This document shows, piece after piece, positions 1 to 13,650 of a stretch of DNA of 64,000 nt (position 1 is its first letter; each line of letters begins with the position of its first letter). The stretch is from positions 24,389 to 88,388 of the forward strand of contig CAYFOE010000003.1 in assembly GCA_964344635.1 (NCBI GenBank), given 5' to 3'. Position numbers and translations under genes: made by a program. The notes under the pieces are model-generated. The model did not search any database. It was given only the letters and a program-made list of their open reading frames with translations, and was not told where the DNA came from. The DNA comes from Candidatus Woesearchaeota archaeon. GTDB taxonomy: Archaea; Nanobdellota; Nanobdellia; SCGC-AAA011-G17; UBA489.

Positions 1-153
1 AGGCATTAAGTACATGCTACCGTCTGTAGCGTCAGCCATCAAACTAAGTCTTCCATAGTGTTTTCTTCCACCAAACCTACCAAAGTCTTCCCACTTGATA
101 GTATCTGTTGTTTCTATTTCAAATTCGTAATTTTTTTCTGGTTCCATTTTTGG
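1..153 (-). CDS. hypothetical protein, N-terminal fragment (gene continues beyond the window start)
   Basis: Reverse strand reads ATG at 151-153 then MEPEKNYEFEIETTDTIKWEDFGRFGGRKHYGRLSLMADATDGSMYLMP, open to the window edge. A TATA-like ctttataaagc lies about 35 bp upstream. Confidence 0.3.
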
Positions 154-285
154 TTTGCCTTTGATTTTTATGGATATCATCCTTTATAAAGCTTTTCTTT
201 AGTAGTTACTATTGAATGACAACACCAATGAAAATATTTAATAACCAGTTAGATACTAAAAAAACAGAAAGCAGAGATAGCAAAG

Positions 286-915
286 ATGAACCAAAGAGAC
301 TTTTACGCAATAACAGAAGGACCGAATTTTATTGGAGGAAGGGAATCCGTGGTCTACAAGCTCCCAAAACACCTTGAACGAGGACTTGGCCCTAGCGTAG
401 TAAAACTATTCCTACCCTTCGTAGAACATAAAAATGGAGTAAGAGATATTAGAACTCCTGACGACTTAGAGCACCTAGCCGCTAACGAATTCTGCATCGG
501 AATGGGCTTAGAAGACCTAGGAATTAATGTTCCAAGAATGCACACAGTCGTAGATTTTCCATCTCCAGGAAAAGAACACCCTCACTACAACGAAGGTAGA
601 AGGATTCCAGGAGTAATCATGCAAGAACTAACCGGCATGAGAGAATTCAGAGAACTAAGCTGGAACGAAAAAGGAAAAGCACTAGACAGTTTTGCATTAG
701 GCGTTGTAAAAGCAATAGGCGGAGGATTTAGACCCTTTGACACATACCACCTAAGAAATGCAATGTATGATGTCGAAGGCGAAGCTCACTTTTTTGACTT
801 CTGCCAATGGTCCGAAGGAGAAATGAAGGCTGGAGAAGGAATGAAATACCTCCAAGAAGAATTTGTTTTACCAAAAGATACATGGGAAAAGAAAGGACTA
901 GAACTAGCTATTTAG
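286..915 (+). CDS. hypothetical cytoplasmic protein (209 aa)
   Basis: Long ORF with protein-like composition. No motif I can assign with confidence. Confidence 0.45.
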   Translation: MNQRDFYAITEGPNFIGGRESVVYKLPKHLERGLGPSVVKLFLPFVEHKNGVRDIRTPDDLEHLAANEFCIGMGLEDLGINVPRMHTVVDFPSPGKEHPHYNEGRRIPGVIMQELTGMREFRELSWNEKGKALDSFALGVVKAIGGGFRPFDTYHLRNAMYDVEGEAHFFDFCQWSEGEMKAGEGMKYLQEEFVLPKDTWEKKGLELAI

Positions 916-1549
916 AGCTCATCTCTTGCGATTTAGGCTGTTTAGCCTCATTATTCTGAAAATAAGACTTACCCTTCTCAGTAATTGCAATATAAGTCTG
1001 CTTACCCTTTCTTAATTTGTGAATCAACCTCGCATCAACCAAGATCCCAATATACTCAGAAACAGTAGACCTCACTTTATCATACGTTTTCCCAGGATAC
1101 AAGTCCATAGCAAGAGTTTTTAGAGCAGTCCACTCTTGACCAGACTCCCTTTGGAAAGCACCCAATCTAAAAAATATAGCTTTTTGCGTTTCCGTTAAAT
1201 CATCCAAAGGACTCCTAGTCATTTTTGGAGGAAGATTTGACTCTTCATCATCATAATATAATTTTTCTTTAGAAGTTTCTCTCTTTTTGGGTTGAGCCGG
1301 AGTAGAATTTTCTCTTTCTGCTAGGTAGGAAATGACTTGACTGATCTCTTCAATTCTAGATTCTAGGTTTTGGAATCTTTCTCCGTACTCTTCATCCCTC
1401 GTTTTGAAAAAAGAAAGCCAATCTCTGATGACTTTTATGTCTGACTTTATCCTTGTGAACGAATTTTTTAGGTTTTCAGAGATTTGGTTAATGTGACTAA
1501 CAGCTTCGTTTACTTCTGACCTCTTTTTTCTTGAGAATAAAAAACCCAT
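908..1549 (-). CDS. coiled-coil protein with C-terminal winged-helix (MarR/ArsR-like) DNA-binding domain; paralog of 2197-2841
   Basis: N-terminal heptad-rich region (ENLKNSFTRIKSDIKVIRD...LESRIEEISQVISYL). C-terminal block AIFFRLGAFQRESGQEWTALKTLAMDL...KLRKGKQTYIAITEKG has the shape of a wHTH. TATA tttataaata lies about 25 bp upstream on its strand. Confidence 0.5.
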   Translation of the reverse strand: MGFLFSRKKRSEVNEAVSHINQISENLKNSFTRIKSDIKVIRDWLSFFKTRDEEYGERFQNLESRIEEISQVISYLAERENSTPAQPKKRETSKEKLYYDDEESNLPPKMTRSPLDDLTETQKAIFFRLGAFQRESGQEWTALKTLAMDLYPGKTYDKVRSTVSEYIGILVDARLIHKLRKGKQTYIAITEKGKSYFQNNEAKQPKSQEMSSK

Positions 1550-1559
1550 ACAACCTCTA

Positions 1560-1800
1560 TGTCGACGTTATTTATAAAGGTAACTCAAGTGTCGGGGACG
1601 TCCCTGTACAGACGTAGACGGGTGTAGACGTGTCTTAGACGGTTCGTCGACGCGTTAATCGACGCAATACCGACGTTATTTATAAGGAAAATGGACTTTT
1701 TCCGACGGAATCGACGCATCTTTCGAAGAATCATCAAAACATACAAGAAGTGAGAATTTAGTCATCGACGCGTAAAAAAATTGAATCGACGCGTAAAAAA
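1560..1800. promoter_or_regulatory. GC-rich island in non-coding DNA with about five (A/T)TCGACGC motifs, three TAGACG(G/T) motifs and a duplicated 17-mer CGACGTTATTTATAA(A)GG (a TATA-box-containing promoter module)
   Basis: Read directly. TCGACGC at about 1647, 1657, 1708, 1766, 1786. ATCGACGCGTAAAAAAA occurs twice, 20 bp apart. cgacgttatttataaagg at 1562 and cgacgttatttataagg at 1672. Composition contrasts with the AT-rich surroundings. Confidence 0.4.
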
Positions 1801-1894
1801 AGCGTCTATTCTTTCGGTTAGGCAATAGTAAGGTTTAGAATACGGCCCTAAAGGCATAGGATAAATCATAAGAATTACTGTGAAAAGGGCTTAA

Positions 1895-2180
1895 TTTTGC
1901 AAAAGTGAGAGTAATAGGGAAACTATAACAAAAATAATGAAAAAGATAGGTAATATGCACCTGAGAATAGGGGTTTTAGAGTACTATTAATACAGGAGAT
2001 TAGAGGTAGATATGCCCTCAAAACCAGAAAAGTGAGAGTTAGATAGGAGTTTTTAATGAAAATATGCTATTCTGGTGCAAAAAGAGATATTGGAGAAGTA
2101 AGGAGAACTGTAAGAAACAATAAATGTTATGAGAAAAAGCTCAAAAAATGCTCAGAATCAAAAAAGTGAGAGTTAAATTA
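1895..2180. repeat. three copies of AAAGTGAGAGT(A/T)A about 126-134 bp apart, each followed about 14-18 nt later by TAATGAAA
   Basis: Copies at about 1902, 2030 and 2164. Each is followed by a tiny ATG-initiated ORF (17, 36 and 5 codons). Related AAAAGTGAG also occurs at 2401 and 3503. Confidence 0.4.
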
Positions 2181-2196
2181 ACCAAATTTAATGAAA

Positions 2197-2841
2197 TTAT
2201 TCAAATAAGGTCCTTTGGTCAGAAGGATTCTGTCTCAAACGGATTAATTTATTCAAGAGATTAAGGTCGTGAAAGTCTTCTTTTATCATAAGTGAGACTT
2301 TACCATTAAAATGGCGTGCTTTTTTGATTGGAAGGCCTTTAGAGATAAGACGATTAGAAGTGCCTCTAATGGTAGTCTCCGTTAAATTAAGGTGGTTTGC
2401 CAAAAGTGAGTAATTAACGTCTCCAACCTGCGATTCAAGCTCTAGAATGGCCATAAACACCGAGAATTCCCTGTCTGTAAGGGTTTTGAACTGTTTCTCA
2501 AAGTCCATTTCTAGGACTTTTAGCGTGTTTTTCGGAATATTTTGTTGTCTTTCGTTGATGGTTGTTGACTGTTGATTGTTGACTGTTGACTGTTGATGAT
2601 TGTTGATGACCCCATCATTTCCGATGGAATCCTTTTTAAAAGAAGTTAAAATATCTTTTATTTCGCCTAAATTTGATTTTAATTCATCTATTCTAGAATT
2701 TAAGGCTAAAATATCCTCTTTATTGTCTTTTGAACTGTTTTTTAATTCAGTTACGCTTAATTTTAGGTCTGAAATGTCATTTTTCGCATTAGAAAAAGAA
2801 TTCCTTATTTTTTCCCTAAAAAGCGCTTTATTCTCAGCCAT
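2197..2841 (-). CDS. coiled-coil protein with C-terminal winged-helix DNA-binding domain; contains a QQSTVNN repeat linker
   Basis: N-terminal coiled coil (DISDLKLSVTELKNS...LNSRIDELKSNLGEIKDIL). Linker NNHQQSTVNNQQSTTINERQQ is encoded by the heptanucleotide repeats. C-terminal FSVFMAILELESQVGDVNYSLLANHLNLTETTIRGTSNRLISKGL is HTH-like. Same architecture as 908-1549. Confidence 0.55.
   Translation of the reverse strand: MAENKALFREKIRNSFSNAKNDISDLKLSVTELKNSSKDNKEDILALNSRIDELKSNLGEIKDILTSFKKDSIGNDGVINNHQQSTVNNQQSTTINERQQNIPKNTLKVLEMDFEKQFKTLTDREFSVFMAILELESQVGDVNYSLLANHLNLTETTIRGTSNRLISKGLPIKKARHFNGKVSLMIKEDFHDLNLLNKLIRLRQNPSDQRTLFE
2553..2610. repeat. heptanucleotide tandem repeat (TGTTGAY)n, about 6 units, inside the coding sequence of 2197-2841
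   Basis: tgttgac tgttgat tgttgac tgttgac tgttgat gat tgttgat gac, read directly. On the minus strand three units make 21 nt and encode QQSTVNN. Confidence 0.75.
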
Positions 2842-2885
2842 TTTCTTAAGGATTTAGAGGGCCTTACAATTATTTAAGACTTACC

Positions 2886-2933
2886 TGTTTGGCATTGTTT
2901 GGTATTGTTGTTCATTGTTGATGATTGTTGATG
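2886..2933. repeat. degenerate copy of the TGTTGAY heptanucleotide repeat in the 100-bp spacer between two minus-strand genes
   Basis: cattgtttggtattgttgttcattgttgatgattgttgatgaa. A 25-codon minus-strand ORF here reads MGNKGVHQQSSTMNNNTKQCQTGKS, resembling the GNDGVINNHQQST segment of the neighbouring gene. Confidence 0.55.
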
Positions 2934-2940
2934 AACCCCT

Positions 2941-3465
2941 TTATTTCCCATGGAACTCTTTAGAAATCTTATAGTACAAGCCCAGAAAAGCCTCTTTTTG
3001 AGGGTTAAGGCCTGAGGAAAGTAATTTCTTCGCCAAATCCTGCCCAACATCCTTGTTGGTGCCTTCAGGAGGCCTATAACAGATAATTCGACGCAAAGTC
3101 TTGTTTGCAACAAAGCCCTCATTGACCTGTAAGCATAGTTTTTGGCCAGTTTTAATGCTTTTCACATTATAATTATTGAGATTCACCATTAAATCGCCCT
3201 TAGAATAGTGCTGATCAACCTTTGAGAAACCATTTGCCAAGAGCAACTCATCAAACATAGCCCTCACAGTCTCTTTTGGACTCTGTTGAGCATTGTTGAC
3301 TGTTGATTGTTGATGATTGTTTAGCTCAATAACACGACCCAAATAAGCAGAAACCTTCTGTTTAGGATGCTTTTTAGACCTTTTACGGCGTTTCGTAAGA
3401 ACCAAATAAGCATACTTCCTAACATCTCCAGAAACATTCTTTCTTGTCTTAGTGCGTATATACAT
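2941..3465 (-). CDS. hypothetical protein with very basic N-terminus and a QQSTVNN repeat segment
   Basis: MYIRTKTRKNVSGDVRKYAYLVLTKRRKRSKKHPKQK is followed by LNNHQQSTVNNAQQS, encoded by the third heptanucleotide repeat. No family assigned. Confidence 0.45.
   Translation of the reverse strand: MYIRTKTRKNVSGDVRKYAYLVLTKRRKRSKKHPKQKVSAYLGRVIELNNHQQSTVNNAQQSPKETVRAMFDELLLANGFSKVDQHYSKGDLMVNLNNYNVKSIKTGQKLCLQVNEGFVANKTLRRIICYRPPEGTNKDVGQDLAKKLLSSGLNPQKEAFLGLYYKISKEFHGK
3284..3322. repeat. third TGTTGAY heptanucleotide repeat tract (about 3-4 units) inside the coding sequence of 2941-3465
   Basis: ctgttgagcattgttgactgttgattgttgatgattgttt, read directly. Confidence 0.65.
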
Positions 3466-3521
3466 ACATAGTGGGCACTACAAAGAAATATATAAAACTA
3501 TTCAAAAAAGTGAGGATAAGG

Positions 3522-3974
3522 CTATGAAGCCTTAGGTTTAGATTCTTCCTTTGACTCCCCTTGAGCCTTAGCCTTAAGAGAAATCTTAGGCATAGCAATA
3601 TGTGGAGGGAGACCAACTTGTTGAGATAAAGAAAGAGCCATAACCCCACACTTAGCAAAAACATAATTTACTAACTGGCCTGAGAAAGAAGGTTCAATCT
3701 TCTTTTCCTTGTCCCAATCTTCTAAAATCTTATCTTTAGCATCCTTACTTGTTAAATAATGAATATAACCAACAATCTCAGTCTTAGCAATATTAGGCAA
3801 GTAATCCACCGAATAAGTGAATTTGAACTTCAAAAGAGCCTGATTATTCATACCCTCAGGAGTAGGATGCTCAGCAATATCTGTAAATTTAATGCCATTC
3901 TTAGCTTCTATTTTACCCTTCAAAGGGCCAGTCTTGTCAACCGATATTTTATCTAGTGTTAAGTTGATTATCAT
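3522..3974 (-). CDS. hypothetical protein (150 aa) with Lys/Glu-rich C-terminal tail
   Basis: ORF downstream of lonB on the same strand. No recognisable motif. Confidence 0.4.
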   Translation of the reverse strand: MIINLTLDKISVDKTGPLKGKIEAKNGIKFTDIAEHPTPEGMNNQALLKFKFTYSVDYLPNIAKTEIVGYIHYLTSKDAKDKILEDWDKEKKIEPSFSGQLVNYVFAKCGVMALSLSQQVGLPPHIAMPKISLKAKAQGESKEESKPKAS

Positions 3975-4021
3975 GTTGGTTGAAATAATCTTAAGAGATT
4001 ATAAAACTTACGATTAAGAAA

Positions 4022-5899
4022 TTAGATACTTTTGAACTTCCTCAAAATACTTTCCTTACCCTTCCACTCCAAAGCATGCTCCAAAACCTCCTTCAGAGTT
4101 TCAGCATGAATAATCTTAACCTTTCTCTTATTACTAGGACTCAAAATCACATCCTGAGCATTAGCCTTAGGAATAATTACAGTTTTAATACCAGCATGAA
4201 TTGCTGCCTCAATCTTTTGAGTAACCCCACCAACCGCTAAAACTTCCCCCCGAACAGACAGAGAACCAGTCATTGCAACATTCTGCTTTATAGGAATCTG
4301 TTTCAAAGCCGAAATAATAGCCGTTGCAACAGCAATCGAAGCAGAATCTCCTTCCACACCACCAGACTCAGAAGCAGTCTGCAAAAACTGAATAAAAATA
4401 TCATACTTCTCCTTAATATCCTCACCAAAATATTTCAAAATAATAGCCGAAACATTCTGTACCGCTTCCTTCGCTATCTCACCAAGCTTACCAGTCGCAA
4501 TAAAATCAGACCTCTTCCCACCAGGCGTAACCTCCGACTCAATAGGCAAAACCAAACCCGAAAGATAAGAATCAGAACCCATCACAGCAAGACCATTAAC
4601 ACGCCCAACCCTCGACCCACTAGTAACAATAACCTCATACTTCTTTTTATTCTCAATATACTTATCAACAATCTGTTGCTCCAAAGTTCTTGCAAAAGAC
4701 TTTGCCTTAATCACATGATCAGGCTCAACAAACTTAGAATTTTGTTCCAATGCCAAATCACCAGCAGCCCTCACCAAACCACCAAGCTCCCTCAAACGCA
4801 AAGTAAGCTTCTTAGAAGTACCAGAACGAATCCTAGACTCCTGAATAATCTCCTCCACAGCAGCCTTAGTAAAATGAGGAATCTTCTTATCCTTATTAAC
4901 TTCCTGAGCTACAAAAATAGCAATCCGCCTTTGATTCTCAAGAGTATCCTCCATCGTATGATTCATATTAATCTCATAACCATAACCCCTAATCCTAGAT
5001 CTCAACGCAGGATTCATCTTCTTAATCGTATCAGGAGTACCAGCCGCAACCAAAATAAAATCAGTAGGCACTTCCTCTGAACGCACCATCGCTCCAGAAG
5101 ACCTTTCTGACTGTCCAGTGATAGGATATTTCCTTTCCTGCATACAAGTAAGAATCTCTTGTTGTGCAACAGGATCCATATTCCCAATCTCATCAATAAA
5201 TAACACACCCTTGTTTGCCTTATGGATCATACCTGGCACCAACCGCTCATAAGCAGGCGTACCCAAACCACCAGATTGAAGAGGATCATGAAGAACATCA
5301 CCCAACAAAGCTCCCGCATGAGAACCAGTAGCATCAATAAAAGGCGCCTTTACCTTCTTTGAATTATCAATAAGAATCTTTGGAACCTTAGTTCCCTTCC
5401 TTGCCTTTTTATTAAGATTAAGGAACAAAATAAATATTGCAATAAACATCATAGAAGAAATCAACGACGCAGCCGCCATAATATCACCATACTGTTTCCT
5501 AACCCACCACGGAGAAAAAATAGAAATAGCAATCAAAATATAGAAAAAAATCATTTGACCCTTGAACTGTTTCATAGACTCAATCTTAGATTGTTGGACC
5601 TGCAACTTACCCTTACCTTTAGACATAACCCTAATCAAAGGATTATGCTCATCAGAAGGATTATCAAAAGACAAAACATCATCCAAATCACCATTAGGAA
5701 TTAATTCGGCCAAAGCCTGTCCCGTCAAAGATTTACCAGTACCCGGCTCACCAATCAACAAAACATTTCTCCTCTGCCTAGCAGCTTTCTTAATAATAGT
5801 AACAGCCTCTTCCTGGCCAATAATCTGATCAACAACAGAATCTTTAATAGAGATATCTTTAGTCGTTTTGAAATCTTTGAGAGTTTTGGAACTAACCAT
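4022..5899 (-). CDS. lonB: archaeal membrane-bound Lon protease (LonB): AAA+ domain with a transmembrane insertion plus S16 protease domain
   Basis: Walker [13 protein letters not shown]. Two hydrophobic helices are inserted in the ATPase domain ([16 protein letters not shown]...[11 protein letters not shown]). Walker B LFIDEIG. Protease domain has Ser-Lys dyad context [26 protein letters not shown]. Confidence 0.9.
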
Positions 5900-5924
5900 T
5901 TTAGATATGTAGAATGCTGAAAGA

Positions 5925-6188
5925 CTAAATTATGTCTTCTTCAGATACAACAACAAAGTCACCAATCGCGATTACAGATGAATAAGGAATTAACAAACTG
6001 TTATTTTGATCTCTCTCAAGATCCATCCCCTCTGTATAAGTTGTCGGATTCTTTAATATGATCTGCATTAATTCACCAGTTCTAACTTCAAAAGTAATGT
6101 TTCCAACTTCCCCAAACCTTTTACCAGTTTTAGTTACAACAGTCTTACCTAATAACTGCTTAGAATAGTTTTTTTCTTCCTCTGTCAT
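5925..6188 (-). CDS. PRC-barrel domain protein
   Basis: About 87 aa with [34 protein letters not shown], typical PRC-barrel shape. Confidence 0.5.
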
Positions 6189-6257
6189 TTTAGGTAATGT
6201 TAACCCTATATGGTATATAAAGCTTTTTGTGTGGTTTTTAAGTTGTAATAAAATTTA

Positions 6258-6884
6258 TCAATCTGAGACTAATTTATTGATAAACTCTGAAGGAAAAATA
6301 GAAAGCAGAGATATAGCCTTGATAGGAGGCTTTATTGAAACATCATTATTCTTGTAAGAATCCAAGAAAACAGGAAGCCTTTTTTGGTTAGGTAGATTCT
6401 GTAAGACATCTGAAACCGCTAAAGAAAATGCCATATCAACTTTATCTTGGTCAACATCATTTAGTAAATCCAAGATCTCTGACTTCTCAAAAGAAATATT
6501 TTCCGACAGAGTGATATTATCTGAAAGCAGGTTAGGAAATGAATCATTCGTGAATGTGAACACCTTGAAAAAACCTTGATCTGAGGAATTTTGATAATAA
6601 GTGTTTAGATCACCAGATTCAATGAAAAAAGTATCTGAATCTGAAAAATTAATTATCATAGTCGATTCTATGTTGTTATCTACCTTATAGAAGAATGCCG
6701 ATTGAGATGTTTCAAGATTTGAAAGACTTTTAGCATCAGAAATTATCAGAATAGTAGTCAATAATATGAATCCAAAGATCAACAATGAAAATATGAATAG
6801 AGTTTTGAGTATTTTTTTAACAACAAAAAACAAAATTAATAGAACAATTATTGAAACAATTGCAATTGTTGTAAGTATCTCCAT
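6258..6884 (-). CDS. hypothetical membrane-anchored protein (two N-terminal TM helices, extracytoplasmic Asn/Ser/Asp-rich domain)
   Basis: MEILTTIAIVSIIVLLILFFVV...LFIFSLLIFGFILLTTILII followed by a polar domain. Confidence 0.4.
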   Translation of the reverse strand: MEILTTIAIVSIIVLLILFFVVKKILKTLFIFSLLIFGFILLTTILIISDAKSLSNLETSQSAFFYKVDNNIESTMIINFSDSDTFFIESGDLNTYYQNSSDQGFFKVFTFTNDSFPNLLSDNITLSENISFEKSEILDLLNDVDQDKVDMAFSLAVSDVLQNLPNQKRLPVFLDSYKNNDVSIKPPIKAISLLSIFPSEFINKLVSD

Positions 6885-6959
6885 TGTTTAAACCTTGAAT
6901 TATTGATATAAATAGGTTGTTAATTCAAGATAAGTAAAAAATAATTGGGTAAACTAAAG

Positions 6960-6984
6960 ACCCCACACCAACATTTCGTATGGA
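6960..6984 (-). promoter_or_regulatory. origin recognition box (ORB), inverted orientation
   Basis: Reverse complement reads TCCAtacGAAAtgttggtgtGGGGt. This fits the archaeal ORB pattern TCCA-N3-GAAA-N9-GGGG. Confidence 0.6.
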
Positions 6985-7039
6985 AAAAAATATTTCGGAA
7001 AAAAACGTAAAACATACGAGTTACACTGTTTAAAGTTAA

Positions 7040-7200
7040 AATTAAAGAATTTTTATAAATTTTTTATTTTTTTATATTTTATTTATAAATTTTTTTATTA
7101 TTTATTATTTATTATTTAATTTATTTTTTTTATTATATATTTTTCAATTATTTATTTTTAGAATGCTGAAATATTTTTGGTTTTTTGATTTATTTTTTTA
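7040..7200. repeat. AT-rich duplex unwinding element with (TTTAT)n-like microsatellite between the two ORBs
   Basis: tttattatttattatttattatttaatttatttttttt and similar text, essentially devoid of G/C. Read directly. Confidence 0.6.
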
Positions 7201-7210
7201 TAAAAGAATA

Positions 7211-7236
7211 CTCCAGTGGAAACTATGGTGTGGGAG
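7211..7236 (+). promoter_or_regulatory. origin recognition box (ORB)
   Basis: cTCCAGTGGAAACtatggtgtGGGag. The TCCAGTGGAAAC core matches the canonical mini-ORB. It lies 55 bp upstream of the cdc6 start. Confidence 0.65.
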
Positions 7237-7290
7237 TTTCATATGATAGTATAGATATGCTTAAATAAAACATGAAATATTTTTGTAGTT

Positions 7291-8508
7291 ATGGCCGACG
7301 TTAAAGACTTTCTACGAGATTACGCAAAAAAAGAGGGTTTATTCAAAAATAAAAAAGTTCTACAATCAAATTACACACCAGAAAAAGTACCATACAGAGA
7401 AGACCAAATAAACATGTTAGCAGGCATACTCGCACCTTCCCTGCGTATGGAGCGGCCCAGCAACATATTTCTCTACGGAAAAACAGGCACAGGAAAGACA
7501 CTAGCAATAAAACATGTAATAGACCAAATAGACGAAGTTGCAAAAGAAAGCAAACTCAATCTAAAAATAGTCTACCTAAATTGTAAACTAAAAAGAGTTG
7601 CAGACACAGAATACAGACTAATAGCACAAATCTCAAGAGAACTAGGACAAGAAATACCACCAACAGGATTACCAACCGACGAAGTTTACAAAATATTCGT
7701 AAGACTAGTCGAAAAAGAAAAAATGCTACTTCTCTTAGTCTTAGACGAAATAGACGAAATCGTAAAAAACACAGGAGACAAAATATTATACAATCTAACA
7801 AGACTAAATGCTGAACTAGAAAACAGCGAAATCTCAATCGTAGGCGTAAGCAACGATCTAATGTTCATCGACCAAGTAGATCCAAGAGTTAAAAGCAGCC
7901 TAAGTGAAGAAGAACTAGTCTTTCCACCATACAACGCAATACAACTACAAAAAATATTGAAAGAAAGATCCCAAATCTCATTCGGAACAGAAGTAATTGG
8001 CGAAGGAGTCATTGAAAAATGTGCAGCATACGCAGCAAAAGAACACGGAGATGCAAGAAGAGCCTTAGAACTACTAAGAGTTGCAGGAGAACTAGCAGAA
8101 AGAAACAACTCAGATAAAATAGAAATCAAATTCATAGACCAAGCCGAAGAAAAAATAGAAAGAGACAGAGTCGTAGACATCGTATCAACACAACCAAAAC
8201 AATTCAAAATCACCCTATACAGTATCTTACAATTCACAAGTTTAGACAGTTCTAAAACGAATTCCCAAGGAATATACACCGGAGATATATATGAACTCTA
8301 CAAAGAGAATTGCATTAAATGCGGAACCAAACCCTTAACCCAAAGAAGGATTGGCGACATAATTGCCGAACTAGACATGCTCGGAATAATCAATGCAAGA
8401 GTCATAAGCAAAGGCCGATACGGCAGAACACGGAGTATCACACTAGGAATTCCTGAGAACATAGTGAAAAAAATACATGTTATGTTACAGGAAGGTCTAG
8501 GTATATGA
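7291..8508 (+). CDS. cdc6: Orc1/Cdc6 replication initiator
   Basis: Walker A LYGKTGTGKT. Walker B LLLVLDEIDE. C-terminal winged helix. Located next to the ORB/DUE origin as in Pyrococcus-type origins. Confidence 0.92.
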   Translation: MADVKDFLRDYAKKEGLFKNKKVLQSNYTPEKVPYREDQINMLAGILAPSLRMERPSNIFLYGKTGTGKTLAIKHVIDQIDEVAKESKLNLKIVYLNCKLKRVADTEYRLIAQISRELGQEIPPTGLPTDEVYKIFVRLVEKEKMLLLLVLDEIDEIVKNTGDKILYNLTRLNAELENSEISIVGVSNDLMFIDQVDPRVKSSLSEEELVFPPYNAIQLQKILKERSQISFGTEVIGEGVIEKCAAYAAKEHGDARRALELLRVAGELAERNNSDKIEIKFIDQAEEKIERDRVVDIVSTQPKQFKITLYSILQFTSLDSSKTNSQGIYTGDIYELYKENCIKCGTKPLTQRRIGDIIAELDMLGIINARVISKGRYGRTRSITLGIPENIVKKIHVMLQEGLGI

Positions 8509-10205
8509 AGAAAGAAATAAACAAAGAAATTCTAGAATCCTTTTTAGACAAAGGCTACCTGCTAGCCCCAGACATCGTAGAAGAAGACGGTTTTGATTCT
8601 GATTTCCTACACCTAGTCGATACCAAAATACTATCCAAAGACAAACCAGTAGTAATAGGTTCAGACATCTACAAAGGAGTCTCAAGAAAAGGAGTCTCAG
8701 GAATCAACTGGATAGAATTCGAAAAAAGCAGAGTACTACACGAAAAAGGAAAAACCAACAGACTATACTCCTCATTTCTAGAACTAATATTTGACGAACC
8801 ACAAGAAGAAAACCTAGGCTACTCCGTAGTTACCAAAAAAGAAGAACCAGTCAAACAAGTCGAAGAAGTTGTCGAAACCGTTAAAGAAGAAATCAAAGAA
8901 GTTCCACCCGACCAAACAAGCCTACTAAGTGTAGAATATCCACTGAAAGTACTAACTAACTACGAAGACGAATCCAAACTAAGAGAAGTCAAAGACTTTG
9001 TCTACCACTACAAAGAAAGATACGAATTCTTGAAAAACATTGTAGCAAAAAGACAAGAAATGCAAAATGTCATATCCATCAGCCGCGCATTCTCCAGAGA
9101 AAAGGGAGAAGAAGTCGCCCTCATCGGATTAATCTATGAAAAAAGACTAACCAAAAAAGGAAACACCATGATCAAACTAGAAGACACAACAGGCTCAATG
9201 AACGTTATCTTCGACTCAACAAAAACCAACGACCTAGATCTACTTTGTGAAGATGAACTAATCGGAGTTGTTGGAACAATGAGTAACGGCTTCCTATACG
9301 CAAGAGAAATAATATTCCCAGACATCCCAGCACAAACAGAAGTGAAAAAATTTAACGAAGACATCTGCGCAGCATTCATATCGGACGTACACATCGGAAG
9401 CGACCTATTTATCGAAGACAAAATGCTAGAACTAATAGCATGGCTAAACGGAAAACACGAAGACCCAAAAATGGTCGAACTAAGCAAAAAAGTCAAATTT
9501 TTGTTCATAACCGGAGACGTAGTAGACGGAGTAGGAATTTACCCCGGACAAGACAAAGAACTACACATCAAAAGCATCCAAGGCCAATACGATAGATGTG
9601 CCGAACTATTAGACATGATCAGAAAAGACATCAAAATTGTTCTATGCCCAGGAAACCACGATGCAAGAAGAATTGCAGAACCCCAACCCGCATTGGACAG
9701 ATATGCCGAATCCTTAAAGAAAATCGAGAACCTAACCTTAGTTTCAAACCCCTCAATGGTCAACGTGTTAGGAAACGAAACCTTTAGCGGATTCAACGTT
9801 TTAATGTATCATGGTTACAGTTATGACTACTACGCTGCAAACATAGAACCCATCGCCCAAAATGGAGGTTATGATCGCGGAGACCTAATCATGAAATTCT
9901 TATTACAAAAAAGACACCTAGCCCCCGTCCATACATCAACACTATTTGTTCCCAATGGCAAAGAAGACTACCTAGTCATCGACCAAATACCCGACATATT
10001 TGTATCAGGACACATACACAAAAGCAGTATATCCAAATACAAAGGAGTTACAAACATCGTAGGTTCTTGTTGGCAATACAAAACAGACTTCCAAGAAAGA
10101 GTCGGACACCACCCAGAATATTGTAAAGTCCCAATATTCAACTTTGGAACAGGAGAAGGAATGATCCTAGATTTCGCAGGAGAAGAAGAAAATGCAAATG
10201 AATGA
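8505..10205 (+). CDS. polD1: DNA polymerase D (Pol II) small subunit DP1, calcineurin-like phosphoesterase 3'-5' exonuclease
   Basis: OB-fold N-terminal part. Phosphoesterase motifs FISDVHIG, FLFITGDVVDG, GNHD and SGHIH. Start overlaps the cdc6 stop (ATGA). Confidence 0.9.
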   Translation: MKKEINKEILESFLDKGYLLAPDIVEEDGFDSDFLHLVDTKILSKDKPVVIGSDIYKGVSRKGVSGINWIEFEKSRVLHEKGKTNRLYSSFLELIFDEPQEENLGYSVVTKKEEPVKQVEEVVETVKEEIKEVPPDQTSLLSVEYPLKVLTNYEDESKLREVKDFVYHYKERYEFLKNIVAKRQEMQNVISISRAFSREKGEEVALIGLIYEKRLTKKGNTMIKLEDTTGSMNVIFDSTKTNDLDLLCEDELIGVVGTMSNGFLYAREIIFPDIPAQTEVKKFNEDICAAFISDVHIGSDLFIEDKMLELIAWLNGKHEDPKMVELSKKVKFLFITGDVVDGVGIYPGQDKELHIKSIQGQYDRCAELLDMIRKDIKIVLCPGNHDARRIAEPQPALDRYAESLKKIENLTLVSNPSMVNVLGNETFSGFNVLMYHGYSYDYYAANIEPIAQNGGYDRGDLIMKFLLQKRHLAPVHTSTLFVPNGKEDYLVIDQIPDIFVSGHIHKSSISKYKGVTNIVGSCWQYKTDFQERVGHHPEYCKVPIFNFGTGEGMILDFAGEEENANE

Positions 10206-13200
10206 AGACACCAACAAGTACTTCGAAGACATAAAATCCGATGTAAACATTGCATTCAGTCTAGCAAACAAATGTAGAGCCAAAAATCTAGACCCCGAAG
10301 ACCATGTAGAAATAATGCTAGCTAAAGACATGGCCGAAAGAGTAGTAGGTCTAATCTCAGTTGTAGCTCCCGAACTGAAAAAAACCAACCTAGTAGAACG
10401 AATCAAAGAACTAGAAGAAAAATTCGGAACACAAGACTGGAGAGTTGCCCTAACCGTAGCATTAGAAGTCGCCCAAGAAAAATTTGTCAAATTCGAAACA
10501 AAAGAACTGGCAATGGAAATAGGCCTGAGAGTTGGACTCTCCTACATCACTAACGGAGTTGTTTCTTCACCACTAGAAGGATTTACCAAACTACAAGTAA
10601 AAAAAAGAAGAGACGGAAAAGACTACCTTGCTTTGTTTTATTCCGGACCAATCAGAAGCGCAGGCGGAACCGCAAGTAGCGTTTCTTTACTAATTGGAGA
10701 TTACATCCGGAAAAATATGGGCTACGAACCCTACGATCCAGACGAAACAGAAATCAAAAGAATGTGCACAGAACTAACAGACTATCACGAAAGAGTAACC
10801 AACCTACAATACATGCCCTCAGATGCAGAAATCAGATACTTAGTTGAAAACATTCCCATCCAAATCGACGGAGACCCAAGCGAGAAAATAGAAGTCAGTA
10901 ATTACAAAGGACTAGACAGAGTTGAAACCAACCGTGTAAGAAACGGAGTTTGCCTAGTAACAGGCGAAGGCATTGCACAAAAAGCCCCAAAAGTATGGAA
11001 ACAACTCGCCAAATGGGGAATAGACCTAGGAATGGAACAATGGAATTTCCTAGGAGATTTCGTCAAACTCCAAAAAGAAATTAAAGCCAAAAAAGCAGTC
11101 AAAAAAGACGATGACAGTGACCAAAAACTAAAACCCGACTACACATTCATCAAAGATATCGTTGCAGGAAGGCCAGTGTTCAACCACCCATTAGCCGACG
11201 GAGGATTCAGACTAAGATATGGACGTTCAAGAATCTCAGGACTATCAGCAAACAGCATGAACCCTGCAACCATGGCAGTATTGAACGACTTCATCGCAAT
11301 AGGAACACAACTAAAAACCGAAAGACCAGGAAAAAGCACAATCATTTCTAACTGTGATTCCATCGAAGGACCAATCGTAAAATTAGTTGACGGCTCTGTC
11401 TTAAAATTAAACACCTTAGAAGAAGCTAACAAAGTCAAAAACAAAGTCGAAGAAGTAATCTATCTAGGAGACATGCTAATCTGTTACGGTGACTTCTTTG
11501 ACAGAGGCCACACCCTAATCCCTGCAGGGTATTGTGAAGAATGGTGGGCACAAGAAGTTCTAGAAGCTGCCGAGAAAAAACCCAAAGAAAACTTCGAAGA
11601 ACTATTAGAAAAACTAAAAGACGATTACTTCACAGAAATCCCATTCAAAGAAGCAATAAAAATCTCTGAACATTTTGGAGTTGCACTACATCCAAAATAT
11701 ACCTACAATTGGAAAGCAATAACCATCGAAGATCTAAAGATCTTAGACGAATGGATAAAAAATGGAAATTTCATCGAAGGTAAAGTTGTATTGCCCTTCC
11801 CTGAAGAAAAAATTAAAAGAACTTTGGAATTAGTAGGAATCCCACACAAAGTTGTAGGAAAAGAATACTTAGTAATCATGGGCCTAGATTCTGAATTAGT
11901 TAAATTCTATTTCGAAAACTTAGACCTTACAAAAAACAACATCTTAGAATGCTTCAACAAAAAATACCCCATAGCAGACAAGTTGGGAACGACAATCGGA
12001 GCAAGAATGGGACGTCCAGAAAAAGCAAAAATGAGAAAATTAACTGGAAGCCCCCACGTACTATTCCCCGTAGGCGATGAAGGTGGCAGATTAAGATCCT
12101 TCCAAAGCTCCCTAGACATTGGAAAAGTAAAAAACCAATTTCCAACCTATGTCTGCGAATGCGGAGAAAGTTCAGTCTATCCCAGCTGTCTAAGCTGTGG
12201 AAAAAAAGCAAAGAAAAAATATCAATGCAACATGTGCGGAGAACTAGGCGAAAAATGCAAACACGACTTTGTAAACGCCTATAAAAGTATGGATCTAGAC
12301 ATTATCAAATATTTCAACAATGCAACCAAACTTTCAGGAATGAACAGAAGTATGTTACCAGAACTGATCAAAGGCGTAAGAGGAACAAGCAACAAAGAAC
12401 ACATTCCTGAACATTTAGTTAAAGGTTTATTGAGAGCTAAAAATAAAATCTACGTTAACAAAGACGGAACCACCCGTTACGACATGACAGAAATGCCCAT
12501 CACACACTTCAAACCAAAAGAAATAGGAACCAGTGTCGAAATGCTAAAAAAACTAGGTTATCTAAAAGACGTAAAAGGCAGAGAGTTAACCAATGAAGAC
12601 CAAGTACTAGAACTAAAAATACAAGACGTCATATTACCCGCATCAAAAGAAGCAATGGATGAAGGCTGCGATGAAGTTTTCAAAAGAGTTGCACAATTCG
12701 TAGACGACCTATTAGTTAATGTCTACAGAGAAAAAAGCTTCTACAATGTAAAAGACAGAACAGACCTAGTTGGACAATTAGTTCTGGCTTTAGCCCCACA
12801 CATAAGTGCAGGCGCAGTAGGAAGAATAATCGGTTTCAGCAAGACCCAAGGAATTCTAGCTCACCCCTACTTCCATTGCATGGTTAGAAGAGACTGCGAT
12901 GGAGATGAACTATGCTGTTCACTATTATTAGACTCACTGATCAACTTTTCAAAACACTATCTGCCAGCACACAGAGGGAGCACACAAGACGCCCCACTAG
13001 TTTTAACAAGTGTTTTAACACCAACAGAAGTAGACGACATGGTATTCAACATGGACGTTTGTTGGAATTATCCACTAGAACTATACAGAGGAGCCCAAAA
13101 TTACCTCAAACCATGGGACATCAAAATAGACCAGCTAAATGGAAGACTGGGAACCGAAAAACAATTTTGTGACATGGGCTACACACATGAAACCACAGAC

Positions 13201-13650
13201 TTGAACAATGCAATTCCCTGCAGTGCATACAAATCTTTACCCACAATGGACGAAAAAGTTCAAGGCCAAATGGAAGTAGCAAAAAAAGTAAGGGCAGTGA
13301 AAACCGACGACGTTGCAAGACTAGTTATTGAAAGACACTTTATCAGAGACATAAAAGGAAATCTGAGAAAATTTAGCATGCAACAATTTAGGTGCGTAAA
13401 ATGTAACGAAAAATATAGACGCCCCCCAATAGCAGGCCATTGTATCGCACCCAAATGTTTCGGTAAAATCATATTCACAATCTCACAAGGAAGCATAGTA
13501 AAATACTTAGAACCAAGCCTAAAACTGGCAAGGGAATTCGAGATATCTCCATATTTACAAGAAACCCTAGACATCACCAAAATGAGAGTGGAAAGCATCT
13601 TCGGGAAAAACGAAGAAAAACAAGAAGGACTAACCACATTCTTCAAGTAA
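10192..13650 (+). CDS. polD2: DNA polymerase D (Pol II) large catalytic subunit DP2; no intein
   Basis: 1152 aa. N-terminal MQMNEDTNKYFEDIKSDVNIAFSLANKCRAKNLDPEDHVEIMLAKDMAERV is typical of DP2. Several Cys4 clusters (CECGESSVYPSCLSCG, CNMCGELGEKC, CVKCNEKYRRPPIAGHCIAPKC). Overlaps polD1 by 14 nt. Confidence 0.9.
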   Translation: MQMNEDTNKYFEDIKSDVNIAFSLANKCRAKNLDPEDHVEIMLAKDMAERVVGLISVVAPELKKTNLVERIKELEEKFGTQDWRVALTVALEVAQEKFVKFETKELAMEIGLRVGLSYITNGVVSSPLEGFTKLQVKKRRDGKDYLALFYSGPIRSAGGTASSVSLLIGDYIRKNMGYEPYDPDETEIKRMCTELTDYHERVTNLQYMPSDAEIRYLVENIPIQIDGDPSEKIEVSNYKGLDRVETNRVRNGVCLVTGEGIAQKAPKVWKQLAKWGIDLGMEQWNFLGDFVKLQKEIKAKKAVKKDDDSDQKLKPDYTFIKDIVAGRPVFNHPLADGGFRLRYGRSRISGLSANSMNPATMAVLNDFIAIGTQLKTERPGKSTIISNCDSIEGPIVKLVDGSVLKLNTLEEANKVKNKVEEVIYLGDMLICYGDFFDRGHTLIPAGYCEEWWAQEVLEAAEKKPKENFEELLEKLKDDYFTEIPFKEAIKISEHFGVALHPKYTYNWKAITIEDLKILDEWIKNGNFIEGKVVLPFPEEKIKRTLELVGIPHKVVGKEYLVIMGLDSELVKFYFENLDLTKNNILECFNKKYPIADKLGTTIGARMGRPEKAKMRKLTGSPHVLFPVGDEGGRLRSFQSSLDIGKVKNQFPTYVCECGESSVYPSCLSCGKKAKKKYQCNMCGELGEKCKHDFVNAYKSMDLDIIKYFNNATKLSGMNRSMLPELIKGVRGTSNKEHIPEHLVKGLLRAKNKIYVNKDGTTRYDMTEMPITHFKPKEIGTSVEMLKKLGYLKDVKGRELTNEDQVLELKIQDVILPASKEAMDEGCDEVFKRVAQFVDDLLVNVYREKSFYNVKDRTDLVGQLVLALAPHISAGAVGRIIGFSKTQGILAHPYFHCMVRRDCDGDELCCSLLLDSLINFSKHYLPAHRGSTQDAPLVLTSVLTPTEVDDMVFNMDVCWNYPLELYRGAQNYLKPWDIKIDQLNGRLGTEKQFCDMGYTHETTDLNNAIPCSAYKSLPTMDEKVQGQMEVAKKVRAVKTDDVARLVIERHFIRDIKGNLRKFSMQQFRCVKCNEKYRRPPIAGHCIAPKCFGKIIFTISQGSIVKYLEPSLKLAREFEISPYLQETLDITKMRVESIFGKNEEKQEGLTTFFK

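Follow-up and report, generated by a model that had tools for sequence, protein, structure and literature searches.

Do short tandem repeats inside archaeal genes act as switches, or are they held in place for another reason? The question is raised by a 64,000-nucleotide (nt) stretch of DNA from a Candidatus Woesearchaeota archaeon (assembly GCA_964344635.1, contig CAYFOE010000003.1, positions 24,389 to 88,388 of the forward strand; hereafter the window). Three tracts of TGTTGAY-type units, as read on the plus strand, lie in and between two neighbouring minus-strand genes of this window. A preliminary description, made from the sequence alone, had proposed that gain or loss of such units would switch genes for DNA-binding proteins by slipped-strand mispairing. 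In fact, two of the three tracts directly follow a sequence, TCCAnnGGAAATnnnGGGGT, which the preliminary description had overlooked and which corresponds in full to the origin recognition box (ORB) of archaea. On the strength of this motif match and of the conservation reported below, we consider it reasonably probable that the box-and-repeat units are extra-origin Orc1/Cdc6-binding modules, dual-coded with a MarR-like regulator gene, and that their repeats are maintained rather than toggled.

Repeat tracts and the adjoining boxes

Tract A (2553..2608, minus strand) lies within the gene for a 214-amino acid (aa) protein (2197..2841, minus strand), directly 3' of a box termed ORB A. It is built of mixed 7- and 10-nt units (ATCAACA, GTCAACA and ATCATCAACA) and encodes a disordered linker, INNHQQSTVNNQQSTTINE. 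Tract B (2886..2934, minus strand) is non-coding and occupies part of the 99-nt spacer between this gene and the gene for a 174-aa protein (2941..3465, minus strand). It stands directly 3' of ORB B and consists of ATCATCAACA-type units followed by CAATRCCAAA-type units. Tract C (3283..3322, minus strand) is not accompanied by an ORB; it lies within the 174-aa gene and encodes NNHQQSTVNNAQQ. Tandem Repeats Finder (TRF) reported a period of 7 with 4.9 copies at 2563-2596 (A), a period of 10 with 3.1 copies at 2904-2934 (B) and a period of 7 with 3.3 copies at 3292-3314 (C). A two-unit pattern allowing up to two mismatches was matched 14 times in the window, 10 of them in tracts A, B and C, as compared to 2.5 matches expected, and none of 100 shuffled sequences reached 14.

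The three tracts that had been described are therefore present, far above chance. It is also correct that three units restore the reading frame and encode a repeated peptide, since three GTCAACA units read VNSQQST cyclically. However, the tracts do not belong to three genes, as had been supposed, but to two genes and one spacer; a third coiled-coil and winged helix-turn-helix (wHTH) gene in the neighbourhood (908..1549, 213 aa), a distant paralogue, carries no tract. Nor are both tract-bearing genes of the coiled-coil/wHTH type, because the 174-aa protein is neither according to its predicted fold and a Foldseek search. The tracts are imperfect, with C and T forms and 7- and 10-nt forms alternating, and the longest perfect run is two units. 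The spacer copy had been taken for a degenerate fragment of the neighbouring peptide. Its homology to the gene copy is borne out by an alignment over about 60 nt, which includes unique sequence 5' of the repeats, but the shared GN(D/K)GV 'peptide' is really a shared DNA motif, the ORB.

ORB A (2609..2628, minus strand; TCCATCGGAAATGATGGGGT) lies within the 214-aa gene, where it encodes S-I-G-N-D-G-V, and is an exact match to TCCANNGGAAAYNNNGGGGT. ORB B (2935..2954, minus strand; TCCATGGGAAATAAAGGGGT) shares its DNA with the final codons and stop of the 174-aa gene (TTC CAT GGG AAA TAA, F H G K stop; stop codon at 2941-2943), and occupies the same place in the related loci L008, L009, L011, L013, L016, L018 and others. 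The archaeal consensus ORB has been given as CTTCCAGTGGAAACGAAAGGGGT (PMC4153887, Table 2), and both site A (aTTCCATCGGAAATGATGGGGTc) and site B (gTTCCATGGGAAATAAAGGGGTt) agree with the published consensus at every specified position. The 13-bp core, TTCCA-nn-GGAAAy, is exact at both sites. The G-rich element GGGGT follows 3-4 nt 3' of the core, as GAT-GGGGT and AAA-GGGGT, with the spacing seen in GTTCCAGTGGAAATAA-AGGGGT. The latter is an example of the Methanomassiliicoccales ORBs, which have the form GTTCCAGTGGAAATGG-AGGGGT (PMC4153887, Table 2), and ORB1 of Pyrococcus reads TTCCAGTGGAAATGAAACTCTGGGGGG when reverse-complemented (PMC1904270).

A search of the 64-kb window for TCCANNGGAAAYNNNGGGGT with up to two mismatches returned exactly four matches, as compared to 0.19 expected, and 0 of 100 shuffled sequences reached four. 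Sites A and B account for two of these matches and the inverted ORBs of the replication origin (oriC) for the other two; all four lie within 4.7 kb, next to orc1. In 510 kb of related loci there were 58 strict matches, almost all of them at the positions of site A and site B.

Conservation of the box and its repeat arm

Conservation was assessed with 42 unique orthologous modules from Woesearchaeota and Nanoarchaeota, among which protein identity falls to about 28%. The core columns of the box have an information content of 2.0 bits in this set. In every species the DNA of the box reads TCC-AYN-GGA-AAT-NNN-GGG-GTN (that is, TCCAnnGGAAATnnnGGGGT), and the codons are always TCC, GGA, AAT and GGG despite a GC content of 35%. 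In the orthologue alignment the peptide SxGNxGV is conserved down to the same identity of about 28%. The same 20-mer is read in three frames. It is read in frame 0, as SxGNxGV, at 42 loci and in frame 2 at four; a one-base offset at L013, L018, L019 and L041 makes the box read VPQEIKGS or FPQEIMGS (the PQEIKGS type). The third frame is that of site B, which reads TTC CAY RGG AAA TAA (F-H-R/G-K-stop) across relatives. The retention of one 20-mer in three frames means that it is the nucleic acid which is constrained.

Synonymous positions are constrained as well. Where two species have the same amino acid, they use the same codon in 88 of 93 cases in the ORB and in 160 of 169 (95%) in the tract, as compared to 74% in the coiled coil, 65% in the distal linker and 64% in the wHTH domain. 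Nucleotide identity between species is 84-100% over the first 45 nt of the tract, against 55-86% for the coding parts of the coiled coil and wHTH. The tract is thus the slowest-evolving DNA in its host gene, synonymous sites included.

Tandem repeats follow directly 3' of the G-string in every orthologue, with units of 10, 7, 4 or 12 nt. The best self-match in the 60 nt after the box was 0.69, as compared to 0.40 +/- 0.07 in control segments, and 95% of species lay above the 95th percentile of the controls. The period was 10 nt in 26 of the 42 species (ATCATCAACA-type units) and 4, 7, 8, 11 or 12 nt in the others. Besides the 7-mers of the window, the unit types include (AATC)n, read NQSI; (ACAG)n, read TDRQ; a 12-mer read HMQT; and others. 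The repeat-bearing strand is rich in A (46%) and C (26%) and poor in G (9%), with 19% T. A more distant and GC-richer orthologue from a Nanoarchaeota genome (L058) also has the box, followed by GGCAACA-type repeats.

Within one genome, modules A and B are near-identical over the box and the first 30-40 nt of the tract, and tract C has the same unit type; between genomes the modules differ. This pattern is one of concerted evolution, from gene conversion and/or a shared reader. Units are homogenised within arrays, for example (CAATGCCAAT)5 in L011 as compared to (CAATGCCAAA)5 in L016, and the unit type turns over across the phylum. Site B is restricted to the clade of the window, where it is kept to about 50% identity, and is therefore not a recent duplication. 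Of the recent duplication or recombination among copies that had been proposed, the exchange of sequence stands, as concerted evolution and the homogenised units indicate, but the recent duplication does not.

Variation in unit number

Six or seven samples of one project yielded seven contigs of the window's population, and all are 100% identical to the window through every tract covered. Tract A has the same length in the window, L008 and L009, which share 71-76% protein identity, and differs by point substitutions only. All 44 reference orthologues are in frame. In an abundant relative, 12 of the 12 members of the 90% cluster have 219 aa, and about 195 contigs are of this form as compared to 4 variant contigs. 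A metagenome scan for the ORB, a gap of 43 to 73 nt and the 3' anchor of the abundant relative returned a single contig, of reference length, too little to speak for or against variation. Length differences within 90% clusters were considered as possible tract changes, and this was rejected: they stem from alternative starts, partial genes or chimeric contigs, with one real exception, the deletion in P0024 described below. Large clusters of relatives show no change in tract length.

Variant contigs of related species were found by a search of truncated cluster members. In L060 and L061, tract A is one 10-nt unit shorter, which leads to a truncated product of 89 aa. In L062-L064, tract C has three instead of five CAATGCCAAA units and p175 is split. 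Contigs L066-L068, from one relative in three samples, carry a hybrid of site B and site A in which the 335 nt between them are lost, including the promoter-like block and the coiled-coil half of the regulator gene. In L069, a 20-nt deletion between 11-nt microhomologies in tract A shifts the frame. Every variant is a contraction, and the stated coverage is 1.3-2.5x. The lengths in L060/L061, L062-L064 and L066-L068 are exactly those predicted for de Bruijn collapse at k = 21-33 or for a jump across the 28-nt identity between modules. The L066-L068 hybrid arose either by recombination between the two module copies, which are direct repeats, or by misassembly at the repeats. The L069 deletion is probably a real, rare allele, because graph collapse at k of at least 21 cannot yield it. 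With a few variant contigs as compared to hundreds of others, their frequency is more in line with mutational noise at a sequence prone to slippage than with a switch.

Three of the seven window-population contigs (L003, L004 and L005) end 6-13 nt from the distal edge of tract A, at about 2540-2547 of the window. These ends may mark a graph branch caused by strain heterogeneity, which consensus contigs cannot reveal. In one relative, P0022 and P0024 are otherwise 99% identical and differ by an in-frame deletion of 24 aa located 3' of the tract, between the short direct repeats NQQQTLT ... INQTLT. In-frame variants of linker length do therefore occur in the regulator family.

The comparison with related genomes, which the preliminary description had suggested as a check, gave a divided answer. 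Equal tract length at 71-76% identity speaks against a switch, whereas a few frameshifting contractions in relatives speak for one, and most of these are explicable as assembly collapse. As a whole, the proposal of a slipped-strand contingency switch is not supported, in the light of the seven identical contigs, the constant lengths in relatives, the imperfect tracts and the 95% synonymous identity. Short coding repeats in metagenome-assembled genomes should not be taken for phase-variation switches without read-level evidence, and modules such as these cause contig breaks and probably collapsed or chimeric assemblies.

The replication origin of the window

A canonical oriC adjoins the initiator gene. 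Its left ORB (6960..6986, minus strand; TTCCATACGAAATGTTGGTGTGGGGTC; motif match at 6965-6984, minus strand) and its right ORB (7211..7237, plus strand; CTCCAGTGGAAACTATGGTGTGGGAGT; motif match at 7212-7231, plus strand) are inverted with respect to each other and flank an AT-rich duplex unwinding element (DUE; 7031..7209, about 180 nt), in which the lowest 100-nt window has a GC content of 1%. The orc1/cdc6 gene follows (7291..8508, plus strand; Pfam Cdc6_lid and WHD_Cdc6), and after it come the small (8505..10205) and large (10192..13650) subunits of the DNA polymerase PolD. TRF reports several overlapping arrays at 7050-7178 within the DUE, and genes diverge from the origin point. The arrangement of inverted ORBs and DUE beside orc1/cdc6 is also conserved in relatives.

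Sites A and B, by comparison, stand in direct orientation 326 bp from each other, are separated by coding DNA, lack a DUE and lie 4.0-4.4 kb from oriC. The inverted pair of ORBs around a DUE is absent at these sites, and the pair of this kind in the window is that at 6960-7237. Because of the direct orientation and the intervening coding DNA, sites A and B are classed here as ORB-type boxes and not as an origin. The possibility that they are the true origin was rejected, as the canonical oriC, with its inverted ORBs and an almost pure-AT DUE, adjoins orc1 and is conserved in relatives.

No second orc1 paralogue was found in the window, and ORC1/Cdc6 belongs to the single-copy core of Nanobdellota (2026 preprint). 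For these two reasons, the same initiator would probably read both the oriC boxes and those at sites A and B.

Genes and other motifs of the locus

Homologues of the 214-aa and 174-aa proteins all come from metagenome-assembled genomes of Candidatus Woesearchaeota or Nanoarchaeota (DPANN). The 214-aa protein is predicted to consist of a long helix (residues 2-69), a disordered linker and a C-terminal MarR-like winged helix. In its structural model, residues 72-103 have a predicted local distance difference test (pLDDT) score below 50; they form the only disordered segment, which coincides with the codons of the ORB and the tract. Against MarR structures the model gave a Foldseek E-value of about 5e-4 and a probability of 1.00, with a template modelling (TM) score of only about 0.3-0.5. 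Pfam searches with the five open reading frames of the locus yielded sub-threshold matches only, those to HTH and MarR families all lying below the gathering thresholds. The 174-aa protein, whose gene contains tract C and ends in ORB B, is modelled with confidence (pLDDT 91, predicted TM score 0.85) as an N-terminal three-stranded basic sheet and an alpha/beta domain. A Foldseek search of this model against the PDB returned nothing at E <= 0.001, and no Pfam family was matched. It is a conserved, uncharacterised, origin-proximal protein. A possible likeness of its N-terminus to those of IS1634-type transposases plays no part in the present interpretation.

The gene order across the lineage is PolD, orc1/cdc6, an AT-rich intergenic region (oriC), PRC barrel, LonB, p150, (p175), wHTH, a gap of about 620 nt and the distant paralogue. 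In the window, the genes between oriC and the module genes encode a PRC-barrel protein (87 aa; 5925..6188, minus strand) and an archaeal LonB protease (4022..5899, minus strand), which are syntenic with orc1 lineage-wide. Synteny of the module with orc1 holds in most loci. In the space that separates tract B from the start codon of the 214-aa gene stands a block, GTAAGTCTTAAATAATTGTAAGG (2862..2885, minus strand), that resembles a TFIIB recognition element (BRE) and TATA box and presumably serves as a promoter. In relatives the BRE/TATA-like block AAGTAAnnCTTAtATAATTC is kept at the same place, about 40 nt ahead of the regulator ATG.

The gap upstream of the 213-aa paralogue, about 650 nt in the window, holds motifs of other kinds. 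Four to five copies of an 11-nt, CG-containing iteron, CGTCTACGAnn (CGTCTACGA iterons), lie at 1613-1652 on the minus strand. This array and copies of ACGCGTCGA (about 1590-1800, minus strand) are placed between two TATA-like boxes, TTTATAAATAAC. The iterons are invariant in the gap regions of relatives (L008, L009, L011 and L013) despite an AT-rich genome, and the array looks like an operator for one of the DNA-binding proteins of the locus. A sequence resembling a mini-ORB, TTCCGTCGGAAA, is found at 1699-1710 (minus strand). The motif AAAAGTGAGAGTwA (CTCTCACTTTT on the gene strand) occurs in the same gap at 1901-1914, 2028-2041 and 2162-2175, about 130 nt apart, and once more at about 3497-3511, between the genes for the 150-aa and 174-aa proteins. 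It is conserved in relatives and could represent an oligo-T terminator context or part of a tandem duplication of roughly 134 nt.

Proposed role and alternative explanations

We propose that the heptamer tracts form one arm, the repeat arm, of a two-part cis-acting DNA module some 65 nt long, which would comprise a canonical ORB (TTCCAnnGGAAAT-nnn-GGGGT) and about 45 nt of directly adjoining, short CA-rich tandem repeats. One copy resides in the disordered-linker codons of the origin-proximal MarR-like regulator gene in essentially all Woesearchaeota and Nanoarchaeota sampled; the lack of structure in this linker would allow the protein to tolerate the element. The clade of the window has a second copy, which overlaps the upstream gene at its stop codon and lies about 50 nt ahead of the TATA-like box of the regulator, with its ORB about 95-115 nt before the ATG; the upstream gene itself holds the third, ORB-less tract. 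The Orc1/Cdc6 initiator, whose gene and bona fide oriC are 4 kb away, would bind boxes A and B as well, and its occupancy may be coupled to the regulator gene and perhaps to local origin architecture. Candidate effects are control of the regulator promoter (site B) and of elongation through the gene (site A), or a contribution to origin-proximal architecture. The repeats are under purifying selection at the nucleotide level, and their copies are presumably homogenised by gene conversion.

Several points weigh against this proposal. Binding of Orc1/Cdc6 to boxes A and B is deduced from the motif match, and the organism is uncultivated. The oriC ORBs of the lineage carry a different G-rich arm (GGTGTGGG), so that the two classes of box might be read differently. 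Sites A and B are direct repeats and not an inverted pair around a DUE, which counts against an architectural role. Such a role is in any case not universal, since no orc1 gene is found within about 6 kb in L035 and L049; in L036 the orientation of the gene with respect to oriC is inverted. The repeat unit differs by lineage (4, 7, 10 or 12 nt), which is hard to square with a single conserved, sequence-specific reader of the tract. The pairwise comparisons of identity and synonymous change lack phylogenetic independence, and identity may be overstated where the sequence is of low complexity. Finally, the frameshifting contractions in contigs of some relatives (L060-L064 and L066-L069) would have to be accommodated.

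The principal alternative is that the box, the phased repeats or both serve as an operator or centromere-like site for the MarR-like protein, dimerised by its coiled coil, or for the 174-aa protein, in autoregulation or in an origin-proximal complex of the partition type, with the likeness to an ORB being incidental. Both tract-bearing genes belong to the locus, the MarR-like protein is predicted to bind DNA, and site B is located just upstream of the promoter-like block of the regulator. The 10-nt period of 26 of the 42 species equals one helical turn, and the other conserved array, that of 11-nt iterons ahead of the neighbouring paralogue, shows that operators of this kind are used in the locus. 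Tract sequence co-varies among A, B and C within a genome, as it would for a shared trans-acting reader, but gene conversion explains this equally well. The box is asymmetric (GGAAAT...GGGGT), whereas symmetry would be expected in the preferred operator of a MarR dimer. It also corresponds to an Orc1 site position by position, the same motif marks oriC beside orc1, and the repeat unit becomes 4 or 12 nt in lineages with a similar wHTH domain. We regard this alternative as unlikely. A contingency locus, in which slipped-strand changes in unit number toggle the wHTH domain or the C-terminal domain of the 174-aa protein, or tune linker length, is quite improbable. Unit lengths that are not multiples of three, homogenised arrays, the contractions described above (one unit in L060/L061, three versus five units in L062-L064, 20 nt in L069) and the three contigs that stop at the edge of tract A would all be in keeping with it. 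However, the seven contigs of the window population are identical, the abundant relative has about 195 contigs encoding 219 aa as compared to 4 variants, and tract length is equal at 71-76% identity, in what is the most conserved DNA of the gene. The tracts of the window contain at most two perfect units, the 44 reference orthologues are all in frame, and the variants are all contractions, most of which have the length of a de Bruijn collapse in contigs of low coverage (1.3-2.5).

An element acting in RNA, such as an mRNA structure, a pairing site for a trans-acting RNA or a CA-rich stretch that modulates translation and is common to both messages, would agree with a module that is always on the sense strand and with tracts that share sequence, and the synonymous constraint would fit RNA just as well. 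DNA is favoured by the ORB match and by the occurrence of the same motif on both strands at oriC, and we hold an RNA element to be highly improbable. The only plausible hairpin over the box (UUCCAnn / nnnGGGG) was considered and rejected: there is no covariation, 70.6% of cells pair, the same as in shuffled sequences, and the variable pairs are mostly unpaired. An Rfam scan of positions 1-8000 of the window at E <= 1 gave no match, and no complementary locus was found in the window. The explanation that deserves least credence, and very little of it, is one purely at the protein level, with a conserved SxGNxGV peptide, a low-complexity Q/N/S/T linker and repeats that are a neutral by-product of slippage. 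The region is indeed a disordered linker, linkers often gain repeats, and the peptide motif is found in most orthologues. But the DNA is kept while the frame changes, three frames being used and one of them with a stop codon; codon choice is invariant, synonymous identity is 95%, and the module is also found in non-coding DNA. The frame changes and codon invariance rule out a peptide-level explanation of GNxGV and NNHQQST.

A broader form of the proposed Orc1/Cdc6-binding modules can be put forward more tentatively, as an idea with somewhat less than an even chance of being right. The modules may constitute a phylum-wide, dual-coded replication-control element, at which the initiator, possibly together with proteins of the locus on the repeats, would couple gene expression or origin and segregation architecture to the replication cycle, and which selection on synonymous sites would have kept throughout the history of the lineage. 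If Orc1/Cdc6 does bind the boxes, they would clearly exemplify overlapping codes in an archaeon, in which an initiator site is kept inside a gene lineage-wide at the cost of a fixed peptide and suppressed synonymous change. The DPANN archaea, in which replication control is essentially unstudied, would gain a concrete and testable cis-element beyond oriC, and the MarR-like coiled-coil protein and the 174-aa protein would become candidates for replication-linked regulation.

Comparison with known systems

In bacteria, initiator and partition sites are found in or beside genes near the origin, such as parS inside spo0J/parB and clusters of DnaA boxes such as datA. The modules described here would resemble these as putative cis-acting chromosome-maintenance sites that are tolerated in or beside coding DNA near an origin; the proteins and motifs differ, and the resemblance is one of analogy only. 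Bacterial contingency loci contain simple-sequence repeats in coding DNA, for example the tetranucleotide tracts of Haemophilus and the pentamer tracts of Neisseria, which are long, perfect and hypervariable between and within strains. The tracts of the window share with them short units that are not multiples of three in reading frames, so that slippage by one unit shifts the frame. Unlike those loci, they are short and imperfect, do not vary in the population sampled and show stronger conservation than the codons on either side.

The nearest relatives of sites A and B are archaeal. They have the same motif as canonical oriC ORBs, G-string included, and the window's own oriC has it, but they differ from oriC in their direct orientation at 326 bp, the coding DNA between them, the lack of a DUE and their distance of 4.0-4.4 kb. 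Isolated, full-consensus ORBs of no known function lie outside the origin, away from the orc1-adjacent pair, in Methanomassiliicoccales (PMC4153887, Table 2). Those are observations from single genomes, downstream of genes, and were not shown to be conserved or dual-coded.

The closest precedent is found in Thermococcales, where a second ORB cluster lies within the coding sequence of dp1, the gene for the small subunit of PolD; in Pyrococcus, Cdc6/Orc1 has been shown to bind this cluster both in vivo and in vitro (Matsunaga et al. 2007, PMC1904270). In both cases ORB-type boxes in coding DNA lie a few kb from oriC and orc1/cdc6 and are kept among related genomes. In the present case, however, the gene that hosts the box encodes a MarR-like regulator and lies across oriC, one or two full ORBs take the place of a mini-ORB cluster, and binding by Orc1 is putative. 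The box is also dual-coded in three frames across a phylum-level lineage, always with a conserved tandem-repeat arm. In the literature searched, no paper on DPANN or Woesearchaeota also deals with origin recognition boxes. Such boxes are already known, in coding DNA as well; what appears to be new is a linker-embedded, full-consensus box that is conserved in three frames across a phylum-level lineage, together with an obligatory, conserved repeat arm and suppressed synonymous change.

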